Positions 4,701-21,193 of a stretch of 64,000 nucleotides of DNA are shown here, in pieces. This DNA comes from Acidobacteriota bacterium (GTDB lineage: Bacteria; Acidobacteriota; Thermoanaerobaculia; Multivoradales; Multivoraceae): the NCBI GenBank assembly GCA_029263415.1, contig JAJCXN010000023.1, forward strand, positions 20,376 through 84,375. Reading direction: 5' to 3'. The first letter of the stretch is position 1. Every line of letters begins with the position of its first letter. The notes below the pieces were generated by a model. The model was not told where the DNA came from. It saw only the letters and a program-made list of their open reading frames with translations, and made no database searches. The position numbers and the translations under genes are program-made.

Positions 4701-4883
4701 CGCTGCCAAGCCACCTGCAGAAGCGCCGATGCCGACGATCGGGAACTTCGCTTCAATCGAGGTAGCGAGTTTCTGCCCAGCGCTGGGTGCCGCGAGGTCC
4801 TCGGGTGGCGGATCTTTGTGCTTGTTAGTCAAACGACTGGCCCGGTTCTTGGCTGGCTCGGCATCGTGACGCCGATGGCTCAA
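1794..4883 (-). CDS. CheB methylesterase-CheR methyltransferase-coiled coil-PAS fusion protein
   Basis: CheB triad motifs GIGASAGG, VQHL and GSDG; CheR motifs CAGCSTGEEAYS and CRNVMIY; EELQSxNEEL heptads; C-terminal PAS/PAC domains (1029 aa). Confidence 0.93.
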   Translation of the reverse strand: MSHRRHDAEPAKNRASRLTNKHKDPPPEDLAAPSAGQKLATSIEAKFPIVGIGASAGGLAAFEAFFSGMPADSNPGMAFILVQHLAPDHKSILTELVQRYTRMQVFEVEDGMTVQTNCAYIIPPGRDMAFLEGTLQLFEPAQPRGKRLPIDFFFRSLALDQQERAIGIVLSGTGSDGTLGVRAIKGEGGMVMAQTPESTEFDGMPRNAIATGLVDYQLPPHKMPSQLLLYTAHAFGRASTTTLLPAAAVEAAMKKIFVLLRAHTGHDFSQYKPSTARRRVDRRMAVHQLETIDGYVRYLQENGTELDALCQDLLIGVTSFFRDPAAFEVLEKQVLPALLNTKPAGHPIRVWCAGCSTGEEAYSIAILIAERMAALKISFPVQVFATDISTKAIAHARKGVYPASIATDMSAERLARFFVAEPDGNAYRIHRGIRDLMVFSELDLIRDPPFSKLDLLSCRNVMIYMNTSLQKKLIPLFHYALAPRGFLFLGTSEGIGLFQELFKPIKRKAKLYRRMDAPHSEHRGAHSHSVHPAGFMGPTLPSARRPTPAGTSTGSLRETTEQSLLLQVIAAGVLVNAQGDILYLHGRTGAYLEPSPGEAGINNVLKMAREGLRLELRSTFHKAVASGATTTSLGLSVRTNGHFVNTNVTVRPVTTGPNASRERPLFLVVLEEVPAALGADAQAHVDLKATSKLSMSPDVAAHIASLQTELRVKEEYLQSTHEELESSTEELKSSNEEMQSINEELQSTNEELETSKEELQSVNEELATVNAELQSKVADLSLANNDMNNLLAGTGIGTVFVDHQLRILRFTPAASNIINLIASDIGRPVAHMASNLAAYTNLINDVEAVLSTLIPKEVHVQAHDGRSYKMRIQPYRTLDNVIEGAVITFVDVTEMVRIQDELAGKNDLLRRAGEMAQVGGWELDVATLRMTFSPEALLINGIGPDEKPTLQQVLEMVHIDDRSAYRDLVETAISDGTPWDTVVRIITPKGALVWIRSQGDAVREGGKSVSLHGALQDITDHQQRTTVPK

Positions 4884-5149: not shown

Positions 5150-6697
5150 CTAGTTCCAGCTCTGAGTATCTCCAGACTCAAATCCATCAGCGAAGATCGG
5201 CACTTGCCCGTAGAACACGTACACAGCGCCGGTATCGACCCGGATGCTGGTGTCCTCAAACGGCGTCCCCACCACGAGATCATCCGCACCATCACCATTG
5301 AAGTCGCCGGTCGCCAATTCTTCTCCAAACCGGTCGAAGTCTTCAGCTGGAGCCAAGGCAAGAGACTGAGTCCAGAACCTGGTGTTAAAAACTGCCAATC
5401 CCTGTGGACTCGACCTGAAAACAAGGACCGCACCTTCATCCTGGGTCGCTGCGCTGCCCCCCTCGGGAAGGTCCTCCAAGGGGCCACCCATGGCGAAGTC
5501 ATCGTTGCCGTCGCCGTCAAAATCACCGGCAACCACGGCCGAGCCATAGCCATCACCGATTTCGGATTGCGCTTGTAACGAAGCATCCTGCGTCCAGATT
5601 TCAGCTTCTAAGTTGTCGAGGCCGGTCGGCTGCCCAAGGTAGATGCTCGCCCCTCCGCCACTCGCACTCCCGGCCGCAAACCCTGGATGCCCCACTATCA
5701 GTTCGTCCAAACCATCGCCGTCAAGATCGCCGGAGGCAAGGTCGGCGCCAAAATCGGTCCCGATCAAAGTCGTGACGAACCGGTCAATACCCATCAAGGA
5801 AAGACCCACGATCCCGGAGCTGTAGAAGACGAAGACGACGGGCGATGCTCCTTTAGACCCCATCGCAAGATCGTCACCATAAAGTCCGTCGAAGTCCCCT
5901 GCTACAAGCGACGATCCCAGTTCCACCGTGGGTGCACCGAATGGCGTGTCCGAATAGTTCAGTTGCATGGCGCCGGCGCTGCTAAGACCCGAGTTCAGCA
6001 CTCCATAGATGACCGAAACGGCTCCCTCCTCGCTGGTGGTCTCGGACTCACCCGGAGCCCCCACTGCGAGATCGGAGATTCCGTCGCCATTGAAGTCTCC
6101 CGTAGCCAGCGACTCGCCGAATCGGTCATCGCTCTCGCCATCCTCCATACCAACGTCCTCTTGCGACCAAATCCTGTGCTGAACTACGTCGAGCCCTGAA
6201 GAATCTCCATGAATGACAAGGACAAAGCCATCATCGACTTCGCCCGACAGGCGGTCCTTTCCAGGCACACCGATGGCCAGATCGTCATTGCCGTCTAGGT
6301 CAAAGTCGCCTGCACCGAGCGCGGCACCAAACCGATCACCCGCACTATTCAAGAATCCGAGGCCAAACGACTCTTGATCCAGAAAAAGCGACGATGCCGC
6401 ATCAAGCCCAGAAGCGGAGCCATACAACACGTGCACTTCGCCCGCAGCTTGCGACCCGGCGCCCATAGCACCCACCGCAACATCTTCGAACCCATCGCCG
6501 TTGAAATCGCCGACTGCGAGAGCCTCGCCGAACACGGCGTTGTGCTCGTTCGATTCGCCAGGGAGATCCCCCATAAAGATCGCGTCAGCGCCCGCGGCGG
6601 TGAGTTGCGCATTCGCCATGGGTACAGTGCCGAGTAGGACCAGCAACGTGAAAAGAACGGAGCGGTTGCAAGCTGAAGTCTTGGGGCGGGTCGTCAT
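5150..6697 (-). CDS. Secreted FG-GAP repeat (integrin-alpha-like beta-propeller) protein with C-terminal IFADGFESGD motif
   Basis: Signal peptide ending ANA|Q; repeated FGxxLAxGDFNGDGxDDLAVGAP Ca-binding repeats; ends VPIFADGFESGDTQSWN. Confidence 0.9.
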   Translation of the reverse strand: MTTRPKTSACNRSVLFTLLVLLGTVPMANAQLTAAGADAIFMGDLPGESNEHNAVFGEALAVGDFNGDGFEDVAVGAMGAGSQAAGEVHVLYGSASGLDAASSLFLDQESFGLGFLNSAGDRFGAALGAGDFDLDGNDDLAIGVPGKDRLSGEVDDGFVLVIHGDSSGLDVVQHRIWSQEDVGMEDGESDDRFGESLATGDFNGDGISDLAVGAPGESETTSEEGAVSVIYGVLNSGLSSAGAMQLNYSDTPFGAPTVELGSSLVAGDFDGLYGDDLAMGSKGASPVVFVFYSSGIVGLSLMGIDRFVTTLIGTDFGADLASGDLDGDGLDELIVGHPGFAAGSASGGGASIYLGQPTGLDNLEAEIWTQDASLQAQSEIGDGYGSAVVAGDFDGDGNDDFAMGGPLEDLPEGGSAATQDEGAVLVFRSSPQGLAVFNTRFWTQSLALAPAEDFDRFGEELATGDFNGDGADDLVVGTPFEDTSIRVDTGAVYVFYGQVPIFADGFESGDTQSWN

Positions 6698-6705
6698 GAA
6701 CGGAA

Positions 6706-6749
6706 TCCTCTCTAGTTGTGAGCTTTGAACCAGCGGTTCAACAAGAGGA
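6706..6749 (-). promoter_or_regulatory. Inverted repeat / possible RBS-occluding hairpin upstream of the FG-GAP gene
   Basis: Perfect TTGAACC-agc-GGTTCAA at 6725-6741. Flanking TCCTCT/AGAGGA pairing would cover the AGAGGA Shine-Dalgarno before the ATG at 6697. Confidence 0.35.
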
Positions 6750-7173
6750 ACGGAAAGACTCCCCCGGCAACCTCAAGACTGAGGACTTTTCAACGAGCGA
6801 AAATCGAAGCGAAGTCCGAACGGCAGAACAACGCGTAGCGGCAACCAGGACTACGTCTGCCCTGCGACTCCCATGAGAGGGGCCACTGCCCTTGAAGGGG
6901 GCTCAACCAGGAGCAACCTTGGGCATCTTCGGCACCTAGACGAACTGAACGAATAGTTGCCGTTAGTGACCCACAAAACCTACGAAGGACCGAGCCCAGC
7001 ACGGGGAATAGCCTTCCGTCCTCTCGCGGTCCGAGTGCTTAGCGGAGCGGTCGACCAGTAGGAGCGAGAGGTGTCATAGGCTTGTGCTGGTGTTCCTGTG
7101 GATTCGCGACACCAAGCAGCGCACAATAGACACTTCGGCATTGATCGCAACGCACCTACCTAGAGAGAATCGC

Positions 7174-8832
7174 ATGTTCCCCCGTTTCTTCCGACGCACG
7201 CCTTTCAACCCAACGTCACGCGACGCGCGCATCACCCTGCTAACCGCAATCGCGGCATGCATCGCACTCCACGCAGCACCGACCGGCGCTCAAAATGCAA
7301 CCGAACCATCGACCGCATCGACCGCCGCCGTCACAGCTCCCGCCGAGCTGGCTTCGCCCCGCGCCACCATGCGCACCTTCCTCGAGTCTCTCGCGGAAGG
7401 GGACCTCGACACGGCGGCCTCTACCCTTGACCTGACCTCGACCGGCCTGAGCGAACGCTTGCGCCGACTACGTGGTCCGGAGTTGGCAGTACGGCTGAAG
7501 AATGCCGTCGACCGCGTGAGGCTGGTCGATTACAACGACATCCCCGACACCACCGAAGGCGAACCGTATGTCTTCTGGAGCGGGCGCACAGGGGTGATCG
7601 AGATCGCTCAAGGAGACGAGGGTGCTTGGCGCTTCTCCCCACGCACGATCGAAAAGCTCAACGAGTCTCTCGATGAACTCGCCGATCACGACATGGTGGA
7701 AGGTGTGGTTGAGGCTCCGCAGACGCGGTCGGAGTGGCTCCGTGCGCGGATGCCCGAGGCGCTGCTCGGCCCGGGCTTCATCCTCGAACACTGGCAGTGG
7801 ATGGTCCTGGGGGCGTTGGTGGTACTTGGTGTCGGGATCGACCTCGTGGCTCGCTGGCTTCTGTTCGCAGTCGTCTCTCGACGCCTCCGCCGCTCGATAT
7901 CGGTCGACACTGCGCGAATCAACCGTGCCCTGCGCCCTTTCGGCCTCCTTGCCATGGCGATGCTCTGGTGGTTTGCGCTGGGTTGGCTAGGCCTCCCGGA
8001 TCGCCCACTCGCGGTGCTCGGCACGGCGGTCGAGATCGTCGCGGTGGCGGGAGCAATCTGGGGCCTCTACCGGCTGATCGACCTCGTCGTGGCCTTCCTC
8101 GAAGCCCGAGCAGAAGCCAGTCCCTCCAAACTGGACGACATGCTCGTGCCACTGTTCGAGCGCTCCGCCAAGATCTTCGTTTTGGTCTTCGGCCTGATCT
8201 TCCTTGCCGATAGCCTGCGCGTTCCGATCACCTCGCTGCTGGCGGGAGTCGGTATCGGCGGCATTGCACTCGCCCTTGCCGCGCAGGACCTCGTCAAGAA
8301 TCTGTTCGGATCGCTCACCGTGCTGCTCGATCGACCGTTCGAGATTGACGACTACATCGCGGTCTCCGGCGTCGAAGGCACGGTTGAAGAAGTCGCCTTC
8401 CGCTCGACGCGCATTCGCACGCCGGCCGACACCGTGGTCACCTTGCCCAACGCTAACCTGATTTCTGCCTCGGTGGAGAACTTCGGTCGCCGTCGGTTCC
8501 GCCGCTGGCGCAGCCACATCGGCCTCGCCTATGACACCCCAACTCTTGTCATCTCGACGTTCTGCGAGCGGTTGCGCACAATCATCCTTGAGCGAGAAGA
8601 CACCCGCAAAGAGGGCTTCTTCGCTGAGCTCAACAACCTTGGCGCAAGCTCCCTAGAGGTGCTGTTTCAGGTCTACTTCGAAGTCCCGGGCCAAGCCGAC
8701 GAACTCCGTGGGCGCCACCAACTCGCGGTGGCGATTCTCGATCTGGCGGAGGAGTTAGGCATCGAGATCGCGTTCCCCACCCAGACGATTCATGTGCAGA
8801 CGAAGGACGGTTCATCAGCCGCTGGAGAATAA
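7174..8832 (+). CDS. MscS-family mechanosensitive channel with N-terminal periplasmic domain
   Basis: Signal peptide; SPRATMRTFL periplasmic domain; TM helices; GVGIGGIALALAAQDLVKNLFGSL, DRPFEIDDYI and GTVEEVAFRSTRIRT MscS core; GIEIAFPTQT end. ATG 7174 preferred over the ORF start at 7084. Confidence 0.92.
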   Translation: MFPRFFRRTPFNPTSRDARITLLTAIAACIALHAAPTGAQNATEPSTASTAAVTAPAELASPRATMRTFLESLAEGDLDTAASTLDLTSTGLSERLRRLRGPELAVRLKNAVDRVRLVDYNDIPDTTEGEPYVFWSGRTGVIEIAQGDEGAWRFSPRTIEKLNESLDELADHDMVEGVVEAPQTRSEWLRARMPEALLGPGFILEHWQWMVLGALVVLGVGIDLVARWLLFAVVSRRLRRSISVDTARINRALRPFGLLAMAMLWWFALGWLGLPDRPLAVLGTAVEIVAVAGAIWGLYRLIDLVVAFLEARAEASPSKLDDMLVPLFERSAKIFVLVFGLIFLADSLRVPITSLLAGVGIGGIALALAAQDLVKNLFGSLTVLLDRPFEIDDYIAVSGVEGTVEEVAFRSTRIRTPADTVVTLPNANLISASVENFGRRRFRRWRSHIGLAYDTPTLVISTFCERLRTIILEREDTRKEGFFAELNNLGASSLEVLFQVYFEVPGQADELRGRHQLAVAILDLAEELGIEIAFPTQTIHVQTKDGSSAAGE

Positions 8833-9254
8833 AGATCTCAAAGGCATGTCTTGGATGACTCGGATGACTCCTTTTGAGGAGCCTGACAGCGTGGGAGTTT
8901 GGTTGCAGTAGAAACCTGACCTTTTCAGAGTCTTCGAGCACGAGGCCTGGAGACAAGAGTGCCGGTGACTTCGGAGAGTAGCGGGTCAATGCGCGTCGCT
9001 TTCAGACCTGCTTAGGGCGCGCTGAATCGTGGGTGGCGCGTGGTTGTGATCCCGGCGTGCTGCTCTGCCTTTGGGCCTAGGCAGCGGCACGTGTAGCGCA
9101 GTGCGGAAGTTCTCCTTGCACCACGTCTCGAGAGATTCTTGGACCCTTTGCTTCGAGAAGCACTGCTCGCGCTAGCGAAGCGCCTTTTTTGCACTACGAT
9201 GTCTGGCACCGTACCTTCACACCACCCAACGTAGTACCAACCAGGACCTGAGCC

Positions 9255-10037
9255 ATGAGCCACCTCCTTACTCCGCGCGTCGGCGGAATCCTCAGCGCCG
9301 ACATTGCCGTTCCCGAGCACGAACATGAGGTGCGTTTCTACTCACGCATACTCACCACCGGCGAGAACCCACTTTGGCGCGAGGACCTGATGAACAACTT
9401 GGGCATGCCGATCATTGGCTTGGGCGCCCGCACCGAGGATCTTGCCGACCTTCCGCTCCAATGGATGCCGCACATTCAGGTCGCTGACGTCGCAGCCTGT
9501 GCGAAGCGTGCGCTCGACTTGGGCGGGAGCGAGCTTATGCACGGCAAAGACGACGATGGCAATAGTCAATGGGCGGTGCTACTTGATCCGAATGGAGCCG
9601 CATTCGGGATCATCCCCGTGGTTCCTGCTGAGGCTGTTGCCTCAGCTGAAGCCGCGGCCGATCGTATGGGTGTCATCTCTGGGGTCGACCTCACAGTCTC
9701 CGCCGCCTCGGCCACCCGTGACTTCTATGAGCAGGTCGTCGGTTGGTCGGTGCAGGACGCCGAGATGGAGGATGGGAGCGAGCGTTACGCTGACTACACA
9801 ATGCTCGGCGGTGACGGAGTCCCAGCGGCGAGAATCCGCCATGCCCGCGGCGCAAATCTCGGTCTGCCGCCGACGTGGATGATCTGCCTCCCGGTTGCCG
9901 ACCTCGCCGAAAGTGTCCGGCGAGTGGAACAGGAAGGAGGAAAGATCATCAAAGCGACACGGAGGAAAGACGGGGAGTATGCCCGTGTGGTGATTCAGGA
10001 TCTGGTGGGGGTGAGCCTGGTGTTGGTTACGGGATAG
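9255..10037 (+). CDS. VOC/glyoxalase family protein (tandem domains)
   Basis: Two glyoxalase-like repeats (WMPHIQVADV...LLDPNGAAFGI; RDFYEQVVGW...WMICLPVADLAESV). Confidence 0.82.
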   Translation: MSHLLTPRVGGILSADIAVPEHEHEVRFYSRILTTGENPLWREDLMNNLGMPIIGLGARTEDLADLPLQWMPHIQVADVAACAKRALDLGGSELMHGKDDDGNSQWAVLLDPNGAAFGIIPVVPAEAVASAEAAADRMGVISGVDLTVSAASATRDFYEQVVGWSVQDAEMEDGSERYADYTMLGGDGVPAARIRHARGANLGLPPTWMICLPVADLAESVRRVEQEGGKIIKATRRKDGEYARVVIQDLVGVSLVLVTG

Positions 10038-10110
10038 GAGGAAAGGGCAGAGCGGCCCAGCACCCAATAGCGGGAGTTGGAATAGAAGTCGACGCCTCTT
10101 CCGGCCGTAA

Positions 10111-10692
10111 CTACTCAGGTTTAGGTGCTACAACTTGGAGGCGGTCCAGAACCGCGGCCAGCCTAGACTCCAGCGATCCGCCAATGAGGCTGTATGGGAT
10201 GCCGCGCACCGTGAGGTCGTTGCGTAACGCTGCGTCCATCGCAATTCGCATGTCGGGATGCGCTCGATTGCCGTCATCCTCGAACTCGATGTCGGGCAGG
10301 CAGACGAATGTGTGGTGATAGCGGCCTGCACACTCGTTCGCGTAGCTCTGCACCTCTGTGGTGGTCGCGCCGAAGAAGAAAAACGCGTAGAACTGAGTTG
10401 TGATCGCGTTGGTGTCGACGAACAGAAACCGGTTGGCGCCCTGGATCAGCCGATCTTCGAGCGCAACGTGCTCACGGCAGATCGTCTCGTACTCACCAAG
10501 CGGTAGGTCGCGGTCCGCCTCGATCCAAAGTCGTTTCCCGACCTCTTCGACCCACGGCTCTCCGGACTGTTCGGCAAGGGCTTGACACAAAGTGGTCTTG
10601 CCGCTCGATTCTGCGCCCAAGAAGACGACGCGCTGGACGGCCGGCTTCTCTGGTGGTGCGAGCACCGTGGCTCTTGTGTCAATGCTCTGCAT
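10111..10692 (-). CDS. Stand-alone NadR-type ribosylnicotinamide kinase-like AAA ATPase
   Basis: Walker A GAESSGKTT, LFVDTNAITT, and PDIEFEDDGNR, typical of the NadR C-terminal kinase domain. No NMN adenylyltransferase domain lies upstream (in-frame stop). Confidence 0.8.
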   Translation of the reverse strand: MQSIDTRATVLAPPEKPAVQRVVFLGAESSGKTTLCQALAEQSGEPWVEEVGKRLWIEADRDLPLGEYETICREHVALEDRLIQGANRFLFVDTNAITTQFYAFFFFGATTTEVQSYANECAGRYHHTFVCLPDIEFEDDGNRAHPDMRIAMDAALRNDLTVRGIPYSLIGGSLESRLAAVLDRLQVVAPKPE

Positions 10693-11961
10693 GAGTCTTG
10701 TCGCCAGTTGGGGAGTAATAGGGAATGCAGGCGACCAGCAGGGTCACGAATATGTCGGCGTCGCTGTCTCTTGAACCATCACTATTTCTGCTGCATTCGG
10801 TTCCGCCAGCTCGACCGGGGCGCGAGTTAGTGTCACCGCGATGCGCCAACATGCCATGTGCGATCTTGACTCGCCCGGCCGGCTCCTAGGCTCGCAAGAC
10901 CGCCCACCCTATCGGCATTTGAGCTCTCGAAACGCGGGCTCTCAGAGGGCCTCGAAAGATCATCGCTCTTGCAGGCCACGCGCTTTCTGCTCGTCGGGAT
11001 TCCATCACGCTGAGTGTATCGCTGTTGCGCTAGACAGTGGTTCAGGTTGAGTCGCCCTAAGGGCACAAGCGAGCGCGTCCTGCACCACTTGCGAAGCCTT
11101 CGGTATCGGTCAGGACCCCTGCTCTCAAACGATACCGGGCAAATATTTTGGGCGGGTCTTTGATCAAGACGGGGCGCCCCCGGTGTCCTTCGGGTCGGGA
11201 TTCGACCCGAAGCCTAAGCTGCGGACCAAGGGGTTATAGCTAAGCTCTTCGCGCATCCGGGTCGGCTATGTCAATGGCAGGCTACAGGCACAGGCCGACT
11301 TCGACCTGCGTCGTGCAACAGCCAACCGGAGCATAAGAAGTGAAAGTTGCATCGGAAGAGCCGCTGCCACCGGTAGCTTCGCTTTAGCCGCGCCTTAGAG
11401 GCTCTAGCCTGGAGGTTCTCCTTCGCGGCAGTCCGGGTGGGCGCCCTAGCTCCGGCTTCGCACCTCCAAGGGCCTACCCAACCACAGCATCCTGCGAGCG
11501 TGTTGCCTGCCGTGATGCGCGGCTTTGTTACGCACAGTTTGCTACTCCCCTCACGTCAGAAGAGACTTCGACCACCACACAGCGGCCCGACGTTAGCTAC
11601 CGATTTCGATCGCCTGGAGGAATGAAGCCGCCGCCTCACTCGGCACAGCATCGAATCGAGCGCTAGAACCGCCTTCTCGCCTGGTTCGTGCTACTCACTA
11701 CGTCAGGAGTAAAGAACGCAGCGAGCGGACCAAACGTGCACGCTTCTCCCTCCTCGATGAGCACAGAGCAAGAGACCGACGCGGTAAGAGCCGCCACATC
11801 GCCCTCGGCCAGCTGCTCTTCGCTCTGAGATTTCTGTTGACCTGATGATGGGTGCAGTTCTCCGAAATCCGTCTCTCTGGTTGAGCGCCCATGTTGGCGA
11901 TCGTCAACCAAGGAGTCCAACGAGCATGCACCACTGCCCGACATCACAATCCGCCAGGCCG

Positions 11962-14679
11962 ATGCCGAGTCAACCGGCGGAATGCGCCGCCGCAAGCGGG
12001 CACACCCAGACTTCAACCATCCTTCAGAGTCCTAGCCGGTTCACTCTGCAGCGCCTGGGTCTGCCGACTACCTTGGTGTTGTGGCTGCTGTGCCTGCCTT
12101 CCGAAGCCGGTCCCCCCAAGGACCTCAACGTGCGTGTGATCGATTTCAACGCCGAGGGCGTAGGCGTCACCTTTGCCAACTCAGGTGGCGTCTACTGGGC
12201 TGGCCAGTACTTCTTTAGCGGCGAGCTAGACGATGGCAGCGAACTGCACATTTCCGACGGAGTTGCCACCTTGCAACTCAAGGACCTCAGGCCAGGGCCC
12301 GAAGACAGTGCGCCACTCGAATTCACCCGCGTCGGTGCGATCAATGACCTGGCTAGTCGCGTCTTCTTCACCGCGGACCTCGGGGTCTCCGGGCGCGAAC
12401 TGTGGGTGACGGACGCTACCGAGGACGGCACGCAGGTGGTGTTTGATTACCTGCCGCACCTCAGTAGTTTGCCCGAGTCTCTCACCGCGTGGAACGGTGA
12501 TCTGTACCTCAGTGCGGATGTCACTGGCGGTGAGTTCACTCTGCACAAAGTAGACCCCGGTACGCTCGCCGTCACCACGCTGGGCCTCGCCAACGTTCTT
12601 CTGCCACCCGAGGTCGAGCTTGAGTCAAGCGGAGGGCTGCTCTACTTCGCGGGCAATCCGCTGACACCGCAGATCTGGTCTACTGACAGCGGCGAGCCGA
12701 CGGTCGAGACCGATGTCGCGTGCGATGCAATCGGTGATCTGTTGGGCGTCTCAGGCGAACTGTTCTTCGTTTGCGAAAACGGAATCGGCACCTACCTCAT
12801 GCGTCTCGATGGTGGCGTTGCAGCGGGCGCGGTCGAGGTTCACGCCGAACCAGCTGGCACAGAAATCGCCCAACTGACTGCGAGCGGTGGCTACCTTTAC
12901 TTCGTACGCGACCAAGAAGATCTGCTCGCCTACGACAACACCAGCGGCGTTGTGAGCACGGCCCAAGACTACGCAGCGTTCGCAGCACCGTTGTCGCTGA
13001 GGGCCTTCAACGGTAGCCTTATCTATTCCGTTCACACCTCAGCTGAGGGTCGCGAAGCCTGGCTGGTGACCGGCACCGCCGCTCCTGTATTGCTCGACAG
13101 CCGACCCGGAACTGGCAGCGGTGTGACCTCCTCCACGTTCTTCGTAGAGCGCGATGATGTCGCCTACTTTGGTTTGGTCGGCGCTGAACTCTGGCGCACA
13201 GAAGGTACCGCGGCGACAACATCCCTGGTGATCGATCTACAGGAATCGGGCAGTTCCGGTGGAATTTCGAGTCTTCACAACACACCGTTAGGCCTGTTCT
13301 TCAGTGGCGGCTCTCAGGAAGTGGATCTCTGGCTCAGCGACGGCACCGAACTGGGCACCGTGACGCTTTCCGATCCGGTGTCCTTCTCGTCAGACCCTGA
13401 AGGTCTGTTGTACGACCCGTATGGTGAGCGCGTCTTCTTTCACGGTGAGAACCCACAGGGCAGGGAACCTGCCGTTTCTGACGGCACACAAGACGGGACT
13501 CACGTTGTGGTGGACGGCGTGCCCGGGCCGGACTACGTCCTGCCTCGTTTCGAAGCCGCCCTTCCAGACCCCAGCCGCGGCACGTCATCTTCAGTGGCTA
13601 TCTACCGCCGCGCTGAGGTCGGTGTCGGCACCCAACTCTGGAAGACCGATGGCACCGAGATGGGCACTGAGCAGATCAGCTTGCTGAGTACCAACCCCAG
13701 CGCCGGTTTTGTTCGCGGCGGAGTACTGAACAACCAGTTCCTGTTTAGGGTCGATGACGAAGTCCATGGGCAAGAGCTGTGGACTACAGACGGCACTTCA
13801 GCCGGAACGCAACTCCTGATCGACCTCAATCCGACGGGTGACGGCGCCTCCTCCCATTTCACAGTGGTCGGCAGCCATCTTTATTACACCGGCAACGATG
13901 GTTTGAGCGGGATTGAACTGTGGCGTACCGACGGCACAGCCGTCGGTACCGAGCTGGTCAAGGACATCGAGCTCGGCCCCAATGGTTCGAGCCTTGGAAG
14001 CTTCGTTGGCAGCTCCAGCCACCTGTATTTCTTCGACTCTTCAAAGGAGACCTTCTGGGTCTCGGATGGGACCGCTGCCGGCACCGTCTCCCTTGGTTCG
14101 TTGTACGACGACGCCGCTTCTTATGCCGTGGACGGCGACAATGTCTTCCTGGTGGGATACGACGAGACCTTCGAAAACCAGCTTTGGTACGCGACGCCAA
14201 CCAGCTTGCAGCGACTGACTGACTTCATCGACGACAGCAAGGAGCCACAACTGCTCGGAACGGTCGGCACACGAGCAGTCTTCTGGGCCCACGACGGCAC
14301 CCAAGACGGCCTAGAGCGCCTGTGGGCGATGACATCTACCGGCTCACCAACGCTCCTGGGCACCTTCAATTCAAGGAGCGATGATTCCGACGATGCGGCA
14401 GTCAGCTGGCAGGGATGGCTGTACTTTCAAGCGGAAACCGCTGCTCAGGGCAACGACCTGTGGCGCACCGACGGAATCATCATCGAACCAGTTGACCTGG
14501 CGCCCGGACCAGCGTCGTCGTCGCCCGAGCTCATGACCACCGCTGGTGATCGGCTATTTCTCTCGGCATGGGATGCCACCGCAAAACACGAACTCTTTGT
14601 GCTCTGGCCTTCATTGCCGATCTTCGACGACGGCTTTGAAAGCGGCGACACCCTTGAGTGGTCGACTACGCTTCCATAG
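11962..14679 (+). CDS. Secreted ELWxxDGT-repeat beta-propeller protein with C-terminal IFDDGFESGD motif
   Basis: Many ELWxTDGT repeats (ELWVTDAT, ELWRTEGT, DLWLSDGT, QLWKTDGT, ELWTTDGT, ELWRTDGT); hydrophobic signal LVLWLLCLPSEA; ends LPIFDDGFESGDTLEWSTTLP. Start uncertain (ORF open from 11845). Confidence 0.9.
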   Translation: MPSQPAECAAASGHTQTSTILQSPSRFTLQRLGLPTTLVLWLLCLPSEAGPPKDLNVRVIDFNAEGVGVTFANSGGVYWAGQYFFSGELDDGSELHISDGVATLQLKDLRPGPEDSAPLEFTRVGAINDLASRVFFTADLGVSGRELWVTDATEDGTQVVFDYLPHLSSLPESLTAWNGDLYLSADVTGGEFTLHKVDPGTLAVTTLGLANVLLPPEVELESSGGLLYFAGNPLTPQIWSTDSGEPTVETDVACDAIGDLLGVSGELFFVCENGIGTYLMRLDGGVAAGAVEVHAEPAGTEIAQLTASGGYLYFVRDQEDLLAYDNTSGVVSTAQDYAAFAAPLSLRAFNGSLIYSVHTSAEGREAWLVTGTAAPVLLDSRPGTGSGVTSSTFFVERDDVAYFGLVGAELWRTEGTAATTSLVIDLQESGSSGGISSLHNTPLGLFFSGGSQEVDLWLSDGTELGTVTLSDPVSFSSDPEGLLYDPYGERVFFHGENPQGREPAVSDGTQDGTHVVVDGVPGPDYVLPRFEAALPDPSRGTSSSVAIYRRAEVGVGTQLWKTDGTEMGTEQISLLSTNPSAGFVRGGVLNNQFLFRVDDEVHGQELWTTDGTSAGTQLLIDLNPTGDGASSHFTVVGSHLYYTGNDGLSGIELWRTDGTAVGTELVKDIELGPNGSSLGSFVGSSSHLYFFDSSKETFWVSDGTAAGTVSLGSLYDDAASYAVDGDNVFLVGYDETFENQLWYATPTSLQRLTDFIDDSKEPQLLGTVGTRAVFWAHDGTQDGLERLWAMTSTGSPTLLGTFNSRSDDSDDAAVSWQGWLYFQAETAAQGNDLWRTDGIIIEPVDLAPGPASSSPELMTTAGDRLFLSAWDATAKHELFVLWPSLPIFDDGFESGDTLEWSTTLP

Positions 14680-14854
14680 GTGAAGAAGCGATTGCACGAC
14701 TCACTTGGACCCTACAGTCTCGAGGCGATCTCAAAGCGCGCCTGAGCGCTCGTCCGTAGAGTCTCCTCTGGGATCGCTGAAAGCGATGTAGACGATCGAG
14801 CTGCTCAATAGCCCCGCAGGTGACGCTGCACCTGAGGTGCTGGCGCAGGCGGCG

Positions 14855-16066
14855 CTATTCGCCAACAACCGGTGACGGCGGCCGCAGGCCGCCGCTGTTG
14901 GCGTGGAGACTCATAGTGTCGCGGAGCTTGCGAACCACGATTCCCGTTGACGTGTTGCGACTGAGGTGAAGATTGGAGAGATCCACCTGGTCGAGTTGAG
15001 TTCCCGCCGCCGATTCATGGACCTCGCCGTTCCATTCCCACAGTTCATCGATGAGGCGATTACCCAGCGTGTCGAGATCGTTGCTCGGATGCGAATCGAT
15101 GCGCGAGTAGGCACCGACCCTGCCAGTGCGTCCGTCAAAGATCGCGATCTGTGCGGTCACTTCAGCCTCAGAGTCTGCTCTTAGGGAACCCGCCACGATC
15201 ATGCTCACCGTGAGCATGTCTGCTATGTCTCGCAGAGTAGCTGCATTCACATCTCCGCTTTGCAAACGATGGCGCGCGCGCTCGACGACTTGGAACGGAA
15301 CCAGTTGCTCAGTGCCACTACCCGTCAACGCTCGAGAGACCAGCGGTACCAGTTGGGCCGCTACCTCCGCGCTCTGTGCGTCGCTCGTGCTGAAGCCCAG
15401 AACAACCGCGATGGGTCGCTGTGAAGGACCAGTGTTTGGCCCTGCTCCAAGCACGTTTCGGCCATCGTCTTGGGCACCGGTGGAGGTCTCGGTAGCGATG
15501 GAGTCTTGAACCACGCCCCCGGACCCCAACTTAAGGAGAACGTAGAGCGTGATGAATACGAAGCCCAGGATCGCCGCAGCAACCCAGACCTTCTTAGGGG
15601 CAGATCGAGGCTTCAGTTGAGCCGGTGGAAGCCGGTTGCGCTGACTCTCGACCGGACTCCCGGTGGCCGGGGAGCCGGGCGATTCATCGCTCAGTGCCGG
15701 TGCGGTTGAACTGGAAGTTCCTTCGGGCGTGGCGTCGGTCGCGGTCGCTTGTACCAGGTTGACGTCAGGTAGAAAACGGTAGCCACGGCGGGGCACAGTT
15801 TGCACAAAGACAGGGTCCGTCGGAGGGTCATCCAAAGCCTTGCGCACTTCGCTGATGGTTTGCTTAAGGGCGCTGGCAGATAGGTGTTCGACACCCCAAG
15901 CCTGGTCAATCAGTTCATCGTGACTGAGCACGCGTTGTGGGTTCGAAACGAGCGCAAGCAGCAGTCTGAACGCCTGCGGTCGCAAGATGAGTTCACCCCG
16001 TGGTCCAGAGAGCATGCCCTGTGGGTCAAGGATGTAGTCGCCAAACTGGTATCGAGTCGCGGGCAC
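14855..16066 (-). CDS. CadC/ToxR-like membrane-anchored transcriptional regulator (OmpR-type wHTH + TM + periplasmic domain), possibly C-terminally truncated
   Basis: YQFGDYILD...LRPQAFRLLLALV...ELIDQAWG...FVQTVPRRGYRF wHTH; TM VWVAAAILGFVFITLYVLL; TolB-N-like periplasmic part. GTG 16066 is preceded by GGAGAG. Confidence 0.8.
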   Translation of the reverse strand: MPATRYQFGDYILDPQGMLSGPRGELILRPQAFRLLLALVSNPQRVLSHDELIDQAWGVEHLSASALKQTISEVRKALDDPPTDPVFVQTVPRRGYRFLPDVNLVQATATDATPEGTSSSTAPALSDESPGSPATGSPVESQRNRLPPAQLKPRSAPKKVWVAAAILGFVFITLYVLLKLGSGGVVQDSIATETSTGAQDDGRNVLGAGPNTGPSQRPIAVVLGFSTSDAQSAEVAAQLVPLVSRALTGSGTEQLVPFQVVERARHRLQSGDVNAATLRDIADMLTVSMIVAGSLRADSEAEVTAQIAIFDGRTGRVGAYSRIDSHPSNDLDTLGNRLIDELWEWNGEVHESAAGTQLDQVDLSNLHLSRNTSTGIVVRKLRDTMSLHANSGGLRPPSPVVGE

Positions 16067-16242
16067 AAGTCTCTCCAGCAGGCGAAGGACCGCTGGTGGC
16101 CATGGAAGAGGTAACTGAGTTGATCGAGGGCGTGGCCTACGATAACAGTTGTTGCAATGCGAGATCCTTCTCGAGGATCTCTGCAGTAGACGATTCCTGG
16201 CCCGACGAGACATTAGCTTCTAGCTGCGTAGGGGTACTGAGA

Positions 16243-16692
16243 CTAGTGCTTTGCAAAAACGCTAACAACAGCGAACTTCTTGCCTTTGGGCGGCGTCCGG
16301 TACGAGAGGCTGATGCTGGCGATGCGCCGTTGTCCACCATTCAAGTCGATCACACGAGTCTTGCCACCTGCAGCAATCCGATGGCGCAGTGTCACGTTCT
16401 GGACCGTGCCGTCGGCGAACGTAACTTTGACACTCCGGAAGACAACCGCAGCGCGGGCCACTCGCAGCTGGATCTTTGAGGCCAAAACGGTCGGATTGAC
16501 GCGGATCACGTCGGTGTCTCCGCGCGGGTGAACTGTGGCCGCTCCCAAGGAGACCCATTCATCGGCTTCAGCGGCTGCATGAGCGACTGATGGGCTGCAA
16601 GCGCAGGACAGTAAGACTGAAAGCAGCGTGAATACGGCGGTTGCGGATCGCATGCGGTACGTGGTTTGTTTCCAATCGGAAGATACCTTCAT
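16243..16692 (-). CDS. DUF2541 (YaaI-like) small secreted beta-sandwich protein
   Basis: Signal peptide, then WVSLG...DTDVIRV...IQLRV...VKVTFADG...TRVIDLNGGQRRI. AAGGAG RBS before ATG 16692. Confidence 0.72.
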   Translation of the reverse strand: MKVSSDWKQTTYRMRSATAVFTLLSVLLSCACSPSVAHAAAEADEWVSLGAATVHPRGDTDVIRVNPTVLASKIQLRVARAAVVFRSVKVTFADGTVQNVTLRHRIAAGGKTRVIDLNGGQRRIASISLSYRTPPKGKKFAVVSVFAKH

Positions 16693-17043
16693 TGCCTGAT
16701 TCTCCTTTGACGATGATTGCTCTGCATTGCCGCAATTCGCTGTTGACGGTTGCCATCCCAGAGGAGGCGGTCGGGCCATGTGCTCCGGTCAGGCTTGGTT
16801 TGCTTGCTGCCAGTGGCACCATGCCGCGCCGAGAGTTCGAAGTGGGCGGCAGATGGTCTAGAAACGGTCCAAGGTTCAGAAGACCTGCCGGGCCTCGAGC
16901 TCGGATGCCTTAGACCGAGCTTGGACCGTTCGATGACGACAGCGCCGCCATGTCGACCCGATGATGTCGGACGAAGAGAGCGACCCGGATAGCCCGAGGC
17001 CCCCGGAGCTGCTCGTCGTCTAACGCAGCAACGGAGGCAAGGT

Positions 17044-18165
17044 ATGAACTCGCAAGAATGTAGGTATGGAGATGGCCTTGGAAAGAAACTGAGGGCGGTT
17101 GGTAGACAACCTGCTACGGCGACCCCGCGGGCACGCTGTCGGACCGGCCCAGTGGCAACAATGACGGCGCTGATGGTCACGCTCTGTTTCCTTACCAGCG
17201 CAGTCCACGCACAGATCTTCTTCGACCAGCCGCCAGCGCCCGGCGCGAACTTCGGTCAGTTCTTGGGCGGACCCTACGTTAGAGAGTTCGCGGTGGTCAT
17301 TCCTTCGCCCGTTGGAGGGTCCCCCGGTCCGAGACCTGTCCTGATTGCACTGCATGGCACCAGTGGCAACATTGCCGACTACATCGACAACGAGTTCTCC
17401 ACTCTGACCGAATACGCGATCGAAGAAGGCTGGTTTGTCGTTGTGCCGCAGGCCTTGCCTGAGGACCCGATCAATGGCGGGAAGATTCGCTGGAACACCG
17501 TCTACTCCGAATCTGTCGCTCCTGATCCGACCGCGCCGGATGATCTCGCCTTCATCTGGACCCTCCTCGAGGATCTGAGCGCGCCACTGCCATTCGACGC
17601 GAACCATGTCTACGTCACTGGTTTCTCGGGCGGCGCAACCATGGCCCAACTGTTGGCCGCGACCCAACCCGGAAGGGTGGCTGCGTTAGCGGCTTCTGGT
17701 GGCAGCCGGGCGACCCTCAGCCAGAGTCCCGACCCCACGACAGGAGAGATCGCGGAGATGTTGATCGAGTTACCAGCGGGCGAAGGGCCGGTTCCAGCAC
17801 TGCTGATTCACGGCTCCAAAGAGGAAGAAGGCGACAACAAGAGACCGTACGCTGGAGGGCTCAGCAGTGGTGGCACTCCTCCTGCCAAGACGTTCGTTTC
17901 CCCGGTCTGGGATCAGGTTGCGTTCTGGATCGAGGCGAACGGGTGTAGCCAGACGGCCCGGGTGGAACTCGGCCCCGACTATGCGGACACAGCGGCTCCG
18001 CTGTGGGACATAGAACGGTGGCGGGTTGAGCGGTATCGGAACTGTTCGGGGCGAACGGAAGTGGTCTTTGTAACAGCTCTTGGGCTCGGGCACAGTTGGC
18101 CCAAGCACTCGAAATGGGGGTTTGATGGAGACCGACTGATCATTGACTTTCTCAAGAGGTTCTAG
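17044..18165 (+). CDS. Secreted alpha/beta-hydrolase, PHB depolymerase/LpqC-like esterase
   Basis: PVLIALHG, DDLAFI, VYVTGFSGGATMA (nucleophile elbow), LLIHGS, W..ANGC, GLGHSWP. The true start may be ATG 17161. Confidence 0.85.
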   Translation: MNSQECRYGDGLGKKLRAVGRQPATATPRARCRTGPVATMTALMVTLCFLTSAVHAQIFFDQPPAPGANFGQFLGGPYVREFAVVIPSPVGGSPGPRPVLIALHGTSGNIADYIDNEFSTLTEYAIEEGWFVVVPQALPEDPINGGKIRWNTVYSESVAPDPTAPDDLAFIWTLLEDLSAPLPFDANHVYVTGFSGGATMAQLLAATQPGRVAALAASGGSRATLSQSPDPTTGEIAEMLIELPAGEGPVPALLIHGSKEEEGDNKRPYAGGLSSGGTPPAKTFVSPVWDQVAFWIEANGCSQTARVELGPDYADTAAPLWDIERWRVERYRNCSGRTEVVFVTALGLGHSWPKHSKWGFDGDRLIIDFLKRF

Positions 18166-18168
18166 CTC

Positions 18169-19644
18169 ATGTCCCAAACAAAGTCTGGCCCCCGGTCTTG
18201 CGTAGGCAGCTCGTGCCTCTTCATCGTCGGGCTGCTCACCGCGGTTACTCCTAGTTTCTCTGCTGAGATCACGGTTGACTCTCTGGGTGATGACCGACTT
18301 GTCGACGGCAACTGCGAACTAGCAGAAGCGATCGATGCGGCTACCACAAACAGTGCTGTGGATGGATGTGTAGCAGGCGAACTAGAGGGAACCGATGTCG
18401 TGCGCGTCGCAGTGAGTGGAATCGTTGCCTTGAAGGCGAAGATCTTGTCTCAGTCGAGCGTGCAGATTGTGGGCCTCGGGCGCGAGGGCACCATCATCGA
18501 CTGCCGCAACGTCGATGAGAGCTGCATTACCACGACGTTTGAGACAACTTCGCTGGAGAGACTGACCGTGCTCGCTGAAGATGCACCGCCCTTGGAGGTG
18601 CTGCCGTTCACCTCGGCGATGCTCACGAACGTCGATCTTCAGGGGGGATTGGCCATTCACGTTTGGCCCCAGGGGAACCTGGCATTGGACCGCTCACTGG
18701 TCGCTGGTTTCGACACCAACGCCGAGGCAGGTTCGATAACCACCACAGGTGGAGCCCTGTTCAACGAGGGTGATCTTGTCTTGCGCGACTCGAGTTTCGT
18801 CGGCAATCGAGCTCGGTCCGTCGGTGACAACCGGGCGGACTCTCTTTGTTGTCGACTGGGTGGTGGTGTGAGAGAGGCGTTCGGCGGAGCTATCTATAGC
18901 TCTGGCGGGTCCGTGGTGATCGAACGTGCGACGTTCTCGGGAAACTCAGCCGAAGCGGCCATCGCCTACGGCGGGGCCCTGGCGTTCTCGAACACCGTTG
19001 TCACTATCGAGCATTCGACCCTGGCAGGGAACTGGGTCGACTCGAGCGGCACTGATTCGCGCTCGGGTGCTGAGCCAACGTTTGGTGGCGGTATCTACCT
19101 AGGAGCTGCGAGTAGCCTTGTGATCCAGAACTCGATTGTCGGCGGCAATACAGCGTTTCGCCCAACCAGCATGCAGGTGGCCAGTGAACTGTATGTTGAC
19201 CCTGCGGCGGCAGTCGGCTCCGCCGGTCACAACTTCGTGCGCGACAATCGAGATAGCAGCGGTGCGTTTCCAGCGGGTCAGCCGAATGGGCTTGGAGACT
19301 ACGTTGGGCAACAACCAGCGCCCCTGCCGCTCGACCTGGAACCTCTTGGAGAATACGGCGGCGACCTACCAACCTTCCTGCCGACATTGGTGGTTTCGAG
19401 TTTGATCATCGATCGCGGTTCATGCTCTTTGGAAGCAGTCGACCAGCGCGGATTCGGCAGTTCCCAGACGGAACTGCGCGCGACCAACTCGGTTGCTCAC
19501 CCCGACGATCATGACGGTTGCGATATTGGGGCAGTCGAGGCGCTGGCCATCGACCGCACAGCCATCTTCTCGGATGGCTTCGAGTCGGGAAACACTGCCG
19601 CGTGGTCGCTTTCAACTGAAGCGTTGTGGCGAGGGATGAAGTAG
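18169..19644 (+). CDS. Secreted CSLREA-domain / choice-of-anchor-Q-like beta-helix protein with C-terminal IFSDGFESGN motif
   Basis: Signal peptide; ITVDSLGD..DGNCELAEAIDAA (CSLREA-like); GGAL/GGAI..FSGNSA repeats; LEPLGEYGG...DQRG...CDIGAVE; ends AIFSDGFESGNTAAWS... Confidence 0.85.
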   Translation: MSQTKSGPRSCVGSSCLFIVGLLTAVTPSFSAEITVDSLGDDRLVDGNCELAEAIDAATTNSAVDGCVAGELEGTDVVRVAVSGIVALKAKILSQSSVQIVGLGREGTIIDCRNVDESCITTTFETTSLERLTVLAEDAPPLEVLPFTSAMLTNVDLQGGLAIHVWPQGNLALDRSLVAGFDTNAEAGSITTTGGALFNEGDLVLRDSSFVGNRARSVGDNRADSLCCRLGGGVREAFGGAIYSSGGSVVIERATFSGNSAEAAIAYGGALAFSNTVVTIEHSTLAGNWVDSSGTDSRSGAEPTFGGGIYLGAASSLVIQNSIVGGNTAFRPTSMQVASELYVDPAAAVGSAGHNFVRDNRDSSGAFPAGQPNGLGDYVGQQPAPLPLDLEPLGEYGGDLPTFLPTLVVSSLIIDRGSCSLEAVDQRGFGSSQTELRATNSVAHPDDHDGCDIGAVEALAIDRTAIFSDGFESGNTAAWSLSTEALWRGMK

Positions 19645-20077: not shown

Positions 20078-21193
20078 GTGTTCGACTCATCCCGCCCTTG
20101 CGCGGACATTCCGCCTCGCTCTGTGAATCTCTGCCCTCGCATCTTCGCTTTGACCGCGCTTCTCTTTGCATTGCTCACGCCAGGTCCGGTCGCCGCTCAA
20201 GAACTGCAGGGGCAAATCGACCAGCTTCGAGAACAGATCGGGCGACAAGCAGAGTCGACCCGCCACCGGCTCGACACCATCTCGCGCCAAGTGGACGATC
20301 TGCTGTTCTTCCAGCGACTCGGTGATCTCGCAGAGATCGACATCGCGTGGATCACCGGGCCACCGCTCACCAAGCAGCAGCAGCCCAATCCAACCGCGCA
20401 AGGGTTCAACAATCCGTTTCGCTTCTTCACCTACGTTTTCATTCCACGCGAACTGGATCGCAGCAAACCCCAGCCACTACTCGTATTGCCCCACGGCGGT
20501 GTGCACGGCAATTTCGACACCCGCTACGTCACACTGCTGCGCGAGCTGTTGACCCAGGGCTACACCGTAGTCGCGCCCGAGTACCGCGGCAGCACAGGAT
20601 ACGGCGGCCGCACCTACCGAGCGATCGACTACGGTGGCGTCGAGATCGAGGACACGTATGCAGCACGCAACTACATGCTCGACACCTACGATTTTCTGGA
20701 CAAGAAACGGGTCGGCATTCTTGGATGGAGCCACGGCGGTCTACACACGCTGATGAACGTGTTCGAACATGGCGACGCCTACAAAGTCGCGTTCGCTGGC
20801 GTGCCTGTCTCAGATCTGATCGCACGCATGGGCTACAAAAGCCAGGGCTATCGAGACCTGTATTCGGTCGACTACCACATCGGGAAATCAGCGGATCAGG
20901 ATGTTGAGGAGTATCGACGACGGTCGCCCTCATGGAACGCTCACAAATACGACGGGACTCCCCTACTGATTCACACCAACACCAATGACGAAGACGTCAA
21001 CGTGTTCGAAGTAGAGCGACTGATTCAAGCACTGAAAGCCGAAGGCAAGAGCGGCTTCGAATACGAGATCTTCAAGGACATCCCAGGTGGGCACACTTTC
21101 GATCGCATGGATTTTCCCAGATCGCGAGAAATCCGAGCCAAGATTTGGAAGTTCCTGGCAAAGCACCTCAACCCCGAACGGCCTGCCCGATGA
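20078..21193 (+). CDS. Secreted S9 (prolyl oligopeptidase) family peptidase
   Basis: PHGGVH, EYRGSTGYG, GWSHGG nucleophile, NDEDV and GGHTF; signal peptide; GGAGG RBS before the GTG. Confidence 0.9.
   Translation: MFDSSRPCADIPPRSVNLCPRIFALTALLFALLTPGPVAAQELQGQIDQLREQIGRQAESTRHRLDTISRQVDDLLFFQRLGDLAEIDIAWITGPPLTKQQQPNPTAQGFNNPFRFFTYVFIPRELDRSKPQPLLVLPHGGVHGNFDTRYVTLLRELLTQGYTVVAPEYRGSTGYGGRTYRAIDYGGVEIEDTYAARNYMLDTYDFLDKKRVGILGWSHGGLHTLMNVFEHGDAYKVAFAGVPVSDLIARMGYKSQGYRDLYSVDYHIGKSADQDVEEYRRRSPSWNAHKYDGTPLLIHTNTNDEDVNVFEVERLIQALKAEGKSGFEYEIFKDIPGGHTFDRMDFPRSREIRAKIWKFLAKHLNPERPAR

Follow-up and report, generated by a model that had tools for sequence, protein, structure and literature searches.

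The window analysed here is a stretch of 64,000 nucleotides from an Acidobacteriota genome (positions 20376-84375 of contig C23 in a 6.9 Mb assembly of 60 contigs, denoted G000). Three of its genes encode proteins with unrelated bodies that end in the same short peptide. This peptide, hereafter called the tail, is a shared C-terminal segment of 15-19 residues with the core IFxDGFESG[DN]TxxW. The three genes and their tails are as follows.

5150..6697, minus strand: gene of P0001, an FG-GAP repeat protein of 515 amino acids (translation; Pfam FG-GAP, 186.9 bits)
5153..5200, minus strand: tail of P0001, PIFADGFESGDTQSWN (core 5156-5197, stop codon 5150-5152; codon-by-codon reading)
11845..14679, plus strand: gene of P0002, an ELWxxDGT repeat protein of 944 amino acids counted from the first ATG (NCBIfam TIGR04534, 290 bits)
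14617..14676, plus strand: tail of P0002, PIFDDGFESGDTLEWSTTLP (core 14620-14661, stop codon 14677-14679; codon-by-codon reading)
18169..19644, plus strand: gene of P0003, a beta-helix / choice-of-anchor Q (CSLREA-family) protein of 491 amino acids (translation, NCBIfam, AlphaFold2)
19561..19641, plus strand: tail of P0003, AIFSDGFESGNTAAWS, with an atypical 11-residue extension (core 19564-19605; codon-by-codon reading)

The original prediction for this DNA had named the same three proteins, and translation together with Pfam and NCBIfam searches places their tails, coordinates and body assignments where it had put them. P0001 ends PIFADGFESGDTQSWN before its stop codon, a short end type with one residue past the tryptophan of the motif. 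The end of P0002, PIFDDGFESGDTLEWSTTLP and then the stop, is of the canonical WSxxxP type, which is the commonest in G000. P0003 reads AIFSDGFESGNTAAWSLSTEALWRGMK up to its stop codon. A choice_anch_Q domain occupies residues 389-458 of P0003 (27.8 bits, cut-off 25; NCBIfam), its beta-helix Pfam match falls below the cut-off, and one source calls its homologues CSLREA domain proteins. N-terminal signal peptides had been claimed for all three proteins. P0001 and P0003 do have signal-peptide-like N-termini by eye, but P0002 has one only when translation starts after the first ATG; its true start probably lies downstream of that codon, just before a hydrophobic signal-like segment. Within the 14-codon cores of the three genes, 10-11 of 14 residues are common but only 26-29 of 42 bases, and the motif serine is encoded by TCT in P0001, AGC in P0002 and TCG in P0003.

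The tail is a general feature of the genome. Among stop-to-stop open reading frames (ORFs) of at least 60 amino acids in G000, a motif regular expression gave 96 matches, of which 83 lie within 40 amino acids of the stop codon; uniform placement would give 10.8. A hidden Markov model (HMM) of the tail found 98 matches above the best reversed-sequence decoy (10.5 bits) in 61,441 ORFs, and no decoy reached 12 bits. This count is specific, but it is not independent because the profile was built from the tails of G000 itself. Ninety of the 98 matches end no more than 30 amino acids from the stop. C-terminal enrichment is about 30-fold for the tetrapeptides DGFE, GFES and FESG, which ranks them with the most enriched of the proteome. 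The consensus is [IL]-F-[AS]-D-G-F-E-S-G-[DN]-T-[ST]-A-W-S followed by xxxP and a stop, with G, F, E and G invariant across the 83 tails. Its composition is acidic and aromatic (F, F, W). The protein ends five residues past the tryptophan in 37 tails, one residue past it in 17 and at the tryptophan itself in 4. Altogether, 72 of the 83 end 0-5 residues past it, in keeping with the earlier claim that the tail lacks the transmembrane helix and basic end of sortase-type signals. The last residue is proline in 43 tails, asparagine in 11, tryptophan in 4 and others in the remainder. Tandem copies of the tail were not found in G000. On contig C51, an ORF of 1802 amino acids has an internal motif at residue 1424 and a C-terminal part that is RHS-like by eye. 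In the other proteins with an internal motif, Pro/Thr-rich linkers come next and then small C-terminal domains, which by eye resemble PPC, PKD and DUF1566 domains.

The tail is attached to many different bodies. When 79 bodies of at least 100 amino acids in G000 were grouped by single-linkage blastp, 54 clusters resulted, and one representative per cluster matched 39 Pfam families. These families include FG-GAP (4), subtilase (3) and beta-helix (2), as well as M14, M28 and M43 peptidases, beta-lactamase-like, GSDH, DUF1501, sortilin/BNR, lactonase, Calx-beta and fn3. The largest tail-bearing cluster consists of 10 paralogues without a family assignment. Among ORFs of at least 300 amino acids in G000, a crude home-made heuristic detected a signal-peptide-like start in 43 of 72 tail ORFs and in 963 of 3284 background ORFs (Fisher p = 1.5e-7). 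A laxer rule gave 63 of 72 against 1802 of 3284 others. Several of the misses have an obvious hydrophobic leader by eye or are ORFs cut by a contig end. The 54 clusters, the 39 families and the signal-peptide enrichment bear out the view of the tail as a portable tag on unrelated proteins exported by a Sec-type pathway.

Selection acts on the tail at the peptide level, because synonymous codons are scrambled while the residues are kept. All six serine codons and all four glycine codons occur at invariant tail positions, the serine codons being AGC (17), TCA (13), TCC (10), TCG (9), AGT (8) and TCT (7). Where residues are identical between tails, the codon is identical in only 41% of cases. Together with the TCT, AGC and TCG codons within the window, this agrees with the earlier claim that the peptide is selected and that the tail is not a DNA repeat.

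Other C-terminal modules can take the place of the tail. In 22 of 58 database homologues of P0003, the tail follows the conserved family end DGCDIGAVE. After the same end, 4-5 of the 58 carry a short two-cysteine tail, CxPxxxxNGxxxxICL, and then stop, two carry IPTL-CTERM (so named in one case by a source), and one carries a cysteine-containing domain of about 100 amino acids, counted as the 115-residue domain described below. The tail therefore occupies the position of the sorting signal in choice-of-anchor proteins, as had been proposed, since IPTL-CTERM stands at the same place in P0003 homologues. A similar replacement is seen in M14 carboxypeptidases. Orthologues from tail-rich relatives have the tail at the end, and those from the tail-free genus g11 end in an acidic or proline-rich linker and a domain of about 115 amino acids, here called CTD-X, which has no Pfam or NCBIfam match at E<=1 beyond chance-level ones. 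CTD-X is present in 40 of 41 relatives. In G000, there are 42 CTD-X domains in 28 ORFs, often in tandem; 26 of these ORFs end with CTD-X, and none of the 28 also has a tail. A tail-bearing paralogous body exists within G000 for 6 of the 28 CTD-X proteins and for 1 of 12 IPTL-like proteins. Even with about 250-410 amino acids of extra domains inserted before it, the tail of S8 and M14 family proteins is still last, and 12 of 13 S8 loci end in the tail. The tail cores of M14 orthologues are identical at 8-12 of 14 positions, as compared with 41-51% identity of their bodies. P0002 is uninformative on the choice of anchor because it has no orthologue at E<=1e-30 in 40 relatives.

These exchanges bear on the question of whether the tail belongs to the fold of its body. 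An AlphaFold2 model of P0003, built with 24 homologues, shows a confident beta-helix up to about residue 380. From residue 394 to the end, the predicted local distance difference test score is 35-45, and the tail is unpacked from the body. The model is weak evidence on tail packing, since its confidence is low in the conserved choice-of-anchor segment as well. Stronger arguments for a tail separate from the body fold are the 54 unrelated bodies and the orthologues that have other modules instead.

The alternative C-terminal ends have their own distribution. The two-cysteine tail is also helix-less and follows choice-of-anchor Q in the metagenomic P0003 homologues P0008, P0009, P0014, P0018 and P0030; it was not found in G000 or in the fetched loci. 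About 12 G000 proteins, separate from the tail set, end in an IPTL-CTERM-like tripartite signal, [LI]-x-[IV]-P-T-L-G followed by a helix and basic residues (for example C39:138947-144005, C15:212898-213543 and C60:5443-6142). G000 also has one short exosortase-family gene (C19:35177-35647), which probably serves these IPTL-like tails. A hybrid of the two kinds occurs at locus L115, in a metagenome-assembled genome (MAG) labelled Holophagae, where the tail is followed by a hydrophobic helix and a basic end.

The tail is present or absent in blocks among related genomes. Its distribution was scanned with a degenerate DNA pattern for DGFESG, and the same pattern read backwards served as the control. 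G000 has 81 forward matches and 0-1 backwards ones, and the backwards pattern gives 0-2 matches per genome. Fourteen relatives besides G000 have 23-120 matches. All 10 genomes of genus g11, which are 97-99% complete, have 0-1 matches, and several other relatives do likewise. Such an all-or-none distribution among relatives is typical of a system. Among 401 genomes sampled evenly across the phylum, only seven have at least eight matches, and all seven are of one class (G000, G033, G028, G032, G025, G039 and G202). The remaining genomes of that sample have 0-7 matches, mostly 0-2 (one in G063). The 36 tails examined in G202, a genome of another order, nearly all have the end W-[ST]-x-x-x-P; conservation of the tail with this end extends across orders. 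A scan of public species genomes returned at least 117 stretches. Among the matches listed, nearly all are labelled as Thermoanaerobaculia, Acidobacteriota or Holophagae MAGs, and the motif lies no more than 40 amino acids from the stop in 121 of 136 motif ORFs, exactly 18 residues away in 78. The abundance of the tail in Thermoanaerobaculia, which had been put forward before, is thus seen in scans of both the phylum and the public species genomes.

Occurrence in other phyla was considered and rejected, as the matches listed there are mostly mislabelled genomes or internal motifs. The motif is internal in matches labelled Verrucomicrobiae, Peribacter, Actinomycetales and Acanthopleuribacter, and the one gammaproteobacterial genome checked, labelled Kangiella, has two pattern matches, which is background level. 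Three loci labelled Deltaproteobacteria (L008, L038 and L044) come from a genome with the same pattern counts as G036, a genome of the window's order, and the label looks wrong. The label also looks wrong for a MAG assigned to Polyangiaceae (L063 / G427), which has 52 matches. It is probably a relative, because its gene order is common with that of G000 at 61-65% protein identity.

The tail is absent from the family libraries and from the literature searched, in line with the earlier supposition. Neither Pfam nor NCBIfam has a model that matches it, either in the whole window proteins or, at E<=10, in isolated tails. No relevant paper was found with the motif strings in a literature search whose scope excluded subscription papers and supplements, and the literature on sorting signals or on Thermoanaerobaculia gave nothing relevant to the tail. 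The accessible part of a preprint on myxosortase describes orphan signals and a profiling method, and the tail motif is not mentioned in that part (10.1101/2023.06.07.544157).

The tail shares several properties with the sortase-type tripartite signals, which are PEP-CTERM/exosortase, IPTL-CTERM, GlyGly-CTERM/rhombosortase, MYXO-CTERM/myxosortase and LPXTG/sortase. Like them, it is short and portable and stands at the extreme C-terminus of many unrelated signal-peptide proteins. A single genome can have dozens of copies, and whole lineages have or lack it; it follows choice-of-anchor domains and is exchangeable with IPTL-CTERM in homologues. Its genes do not lie beside a processing enzyme gene, and the accessible part of the preprint describes the same for MYXO-CTERM, which is not encoded beside its processing enzyme (10.1101/2023.06.07.544157). 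Unlike the tripartite signals, the tail has no transmembrane helix, the locus L115 hybrid being the sole bearer of one. It also has no basic cluster; it is acidic and ends mostly in proline or asparagine. No NCBIfam sorting-signal model matches it, and the one sorting enzyme family profiled, exosortase PF09721, does not track it, being present in nine tail-poor genomes.

Other secretion and anchoring signals differ from the tail in size, placement or cargo. The C-terminal domain (CTD) of type IX secretion is a helix-less C-terminal signal for passage through, or attachment to, the outer membrane, and it occurs in tens of copies on Sec-exported hydrolases and adhesins. It is a folded sandwich of about 70-100 amino acids. 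The tail is likewise helix-less, C-terminal and present on Sec-exported hydrolases and adhesin-like proteins, but it has only 15-19 residues and does not match a CTD model. General library scans matched no type IX component or CTD model, and no search was aimed at PorU, PorV or SprA. Type I secretion cargo has no Sec signal, unlike the 43-63 of 72 tail ORFs that are signal-peptide-like by the heuristic. The outer-membrane beta-signal is a poor parallel as well, since only 4 of 83 tails end in tryptophan and the cargo consists of propellers, beta-helices and soluble enzymes. Dockerins are modules of about 70 amino acids with two Ca2+-binding repeats. In the original prediction, the tail may dock cargo onto a surface scaffold or secretion receptor by beta-strand complementation, possibly in a Ca2+-dependent way. 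On that view it would be comparable to a dockerin, as an acidic, possibly Ca2+-binding C-terminal module that could keep diverse secreted enzymes on a scaffold at the surface. Unlike a dockerin, it is a single motif of 15-19 amino acids that is never tandem, and no cohesin-like or multi-receptor scaffold partner was found. WGxxGxxG-CTERM (NF038039) is described in the accessible part of the preprint as short, without a known processing enzyme, similar in design to MYXO-CTERM and a possible orphan signal (10.1101/2023.06.07.544157). The tail resembles it as a short C-terminal module without a known processing enzyme. The two motifs differ, however, and the tail has no HMM match to this family.

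The tail also has to be compared with the beginning of a larger domain. The pattern F-x-D-G-F-E-x-G...W presumably resembles the start of LamG, CBM4_9 or MAM-type jelly-roll domains. The original prediction had likened it to the first strand of MAM or cleaved-adhesin sandwiches, and the sole support seen for this is one G000 protein whose domain of about 200 amino acids begins with a variant of the motif. Unlike the first hairpin of such a domain, 90 of the 98 tail matches have at most 30 residues after them, and none of the Pfam jelly-roll models aligned to a tail. We do not place the tail in any described family, because it has neither the helix and basic end that define sortase-type signals nor the size of a type IX CTD. 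On our reading, its functional class is that of the C-terminal sorting and anchoring modules, from which it differs in kind by being short, acidic, aromatic and helix-less.

We consider the tail, on balance, to be a portable, self-contained C-terminal sorting or retention tag for Sec-exported proteins of the Thermoanaerobaculia lineage. This reading fits best because the tail is portable, selected, near-terminal, exchangeable with other modules and present or absent in blocks. In the proposed mechanism, the signal peptide would be cleaved and the cargo would reach the periplasm. The tail, probably a small hairpin directly past the last body strand, would be recognised by a trans-acting envelope factor, which would direct the cargo across, or hold it at, the outer membrane or the cell surface. 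The tail would probably be kept on the mature protein. More tentatively, the tail is a candidate address label of an undescribed export or surface-display route with its own envelope receptor, a stronger proposal that we regard as somewhat doubtful.

Several observations weigh against a sorting or retention tag. The distance from the tryptophan to the protein end varies in G000 from 0 to 5 or more residues, and it is therefore a poor fit to recognition of a terminal carboxylate. A free C-terminus is not a strict requirement either, because about 8 of the 98 HMM matches lie inside proteins, with linkers and further domains after them. In P0001, P0002 and the M14 enzyme, only 2-4 residues separate the tail from the last strand of the body, which leaves some room for a role within the molecule, given a single model of low confidence. 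The signal-peptide heuristic is home-made and has a high background rate. Reading in trans lacks direct support because no recognising machinery, receptor, scaffold or secretion gene was found among the handful of candidates profiled; with so few profiled, this failure is no evidence of absence. The only recurrent neighbours of tail genes are ECF sigma genes (11 of 22 copies, p = 5e-5) and Ser/Thr kinase genes (11 of 32), and the tail neighbourhoods of G202 (400 kb) and G427 (287 kb) share only housekeeping genes with G000. Three candidates for a tail-tracking gene were rejected. The type II-like secretin has an orthologue in every one of the 41 relatives, tail-rich or not. The exosortase PF09721 occurs in 28 of 41 relatives and in none of the 10 g11 genomes, yet it is found in the nine tail-poor genomes mentioned above. 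Oar-like outer-membrane barrels (PF25183) are likewise universal among the relatives (41 of 41), and tail-rich genomes do not have more of them.

Other candidates were also set aside. The Pfam T2SSK model proved unspecific, as its control matched Gram-positive genomes, and it has no match in G000. CTD-X as a receptor is contradicted by its absence from tail-rich G028, G202 and G427, with G000 and G010 as positive controls. A variant of the motif begins a domain of about 200 amino acids in one G000 protein. This sole full domain starting with a motif variant has no homologue in G000, and the idea of a strand donor was dropped.

Clustering of 83 neighbourhoods in G000 and 117 loci elsewhere showed that only regulators exceed chance, and the tail hot spot at C48:348-396 kb of G000 contains regulators only. 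The regulators are genes that we take by eye to be of the ECF sigma and Ser/Thr kinase families. They mark the secretome and not the tail, because they are also enriched near CTD-X genes. A distance of no more than 6 kb separates 11 of the 22 ECF paralogues from tail genes and five from CTD-X genes. Pairs of ECF sigma and Ser/Thr kinase genes stand beside secretome genes, for example at C48:350002-353347 and C48:373376-376835, which suggests dedicated regulation of individual secreted proteins.

Two alternatives to a sorting or retention tag still have to be weighed because of the internal copies, the variable end distance and the position of the tail directly past the last strand. The first takes the tail for an autonomous binding peptide, which as a minimal adhesive or retention module would by itself bind a non-protein ligand of the envelope or the environment, with no need for a dedicated receptor or export machine. 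Candidate ligands are lipopolysaccharide or exopolysaccharide, bound through bridging Ca2+, or a glycan bound through the three aromatic residues. We hold this to be unlikely, though it accounts for a number of facts. The acidic composition with its F, F and W suits such ligands, the rare linker-flanked internal copies behave as an independent module, and the tail is exchangeable with CTD-X, whose frequent tandem arrangement is usual for binding modules. Many tails end in proline, a C-terminal residue that resists carboxypeptidases, as would suit an end that is retained and exposed. No machinery gene was seen to co-vary with the tail or to lie beside its genes, but with only a handful of candidates profiled this is weak evidence. 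Fifteen residues are very few for autonomous ligand binding, moreover, and the tail is never tandem. The strict near-terminal placement, kept despite domain insertion, would not be required of a binder.

A second alternative, to which we give little credence, is an intramolecular cap. The tail would form a hairpin on the last domain or chelate Ca2+, stabilising the protein or protecting it from exoproteases, without any role in sorting. A cap would be expected to begin close to the last body strand, as the tail does in P0001, P0002 and the M14 enzyme (2-4 residues past it). C-terminal proline is frequent (43 of 83); the cargo is extracytoplasmic and exposed to proteases, and several cargo proteins are themselves peptidases. 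A single peptide would nevertheless have to suit 54 unrelated body clusters and 39 Pfam families. Orthologues without the tail carry a linker and another module, and enzymes of these kinds are also encoded by relatives that have 0-1 copies. AlphaFold2 leaves the tail unpacked on the beta-helix, in a region where the model has low confidence, and the all-or-none lineage distribution is unusual for a generic stabiliser.

It is similarly improbable that the tail is the substrate signal of a known secretion pathway, such as the type II-like system at C4:107-117 kb of G000. In that case the signal would be new to recognition but the pathway would not. This genome encodes a type II/IV-like ATPase and secretin cluster, a Tad cluster and pilMNOPQ. 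The tail-bearing cargo is a mix of hydrolases and adhesin-like repeat proteins, and type II or type IX cargo in other phyla has a similar mix. To our knowledge, however, type II substrates have no linear signal. A type II-like secretin alone cannot explain the patchy distribution of the tail, since its orthologue is present in all 41 relatives, including every tail-free genome. The unspecific T2SSK model is of no help here, and the library scans, made without a search aimed at type IX, matched no component or CTD of that system. A precedent for a type II route does exist in MYXO-CTERM proteins, which reach the cell surface by type II secretion according to the accessible part of the preprint (10.1101/2023.06.07.544157).

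A non-functional relic, either what remains of a lost jelly-roll domain (its first hairpin) or a DNA element spreading at 3' ends, is extremely improbable and is contradicted by the scrambled codons with conserved residues and by 90 copies at a fixed position, as well as by the conservation of the same end across orders and of the M14 tail cores (8-12 of 14 identical, bodies 41-51%), even though a variant motif begins a real domain of about 200 amino acids in one G000 protein and the motif in an Actinomycetales-labelled MAG runs on directly into sequence without a linker.

C-terminal sorting tags have led repeatedly to new envelope machines, namely the sortases, exosortases, rhombosortase, myxosortase and the type IX system. 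The tail differs from the described tags compared here in being short, acidic and aromatic without a membrane helix. It marks about 90 proteins, many of them peptidases and adhesin-like proteins, in an abundant and almost uncultured class of Acidobacteriota, and it provides a one-line annotation rule for predicting the secreted and surface proteome of these organisms. Its sharp presence and absence among close relatives suits phylogenetic profiling for a receptor, and it is a very small candidate tag for protein display. If the tail does mark an undescribed route, no shorter helix-less sorting signal would be known for the Sec-exported proteins of diderm bacteria; together with CTD-X on 28 further proteins, more than 100 proteins per cell would be sorted by routes new to model organisms. 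Should the tail instead prove to bind a ligand on its own, it would be unusual among retention modules for its small size.

A few further observations concern envelope genes and the surroundings of the tail genes. At C44:207479-214237 (minus strand) of G000 (locus L176:2480-9238), a single frame of 2253 amino acids combines TamB, POTRA and a C-terminal Omp85 barrel. This is a TamB-TamA fusion or else a pair of genes with no stop codon between them. Within the window, positions 21145-24426 (plus strand) encode a sortilin/BNR repeat protein of 1093 amino acids; this family has 15 copies in G000, six of them near tail genes (p = 0.01). On the other side of the three tail genes, positions 1794-4883 (minus strand) encode a fusion of CheB methylesterase and CheR methyltransferase with PAS domains (1029 amino acids), and a PAS histidine kinase with a receiver domain adjoins it at positions 3-1604 (minus strand).

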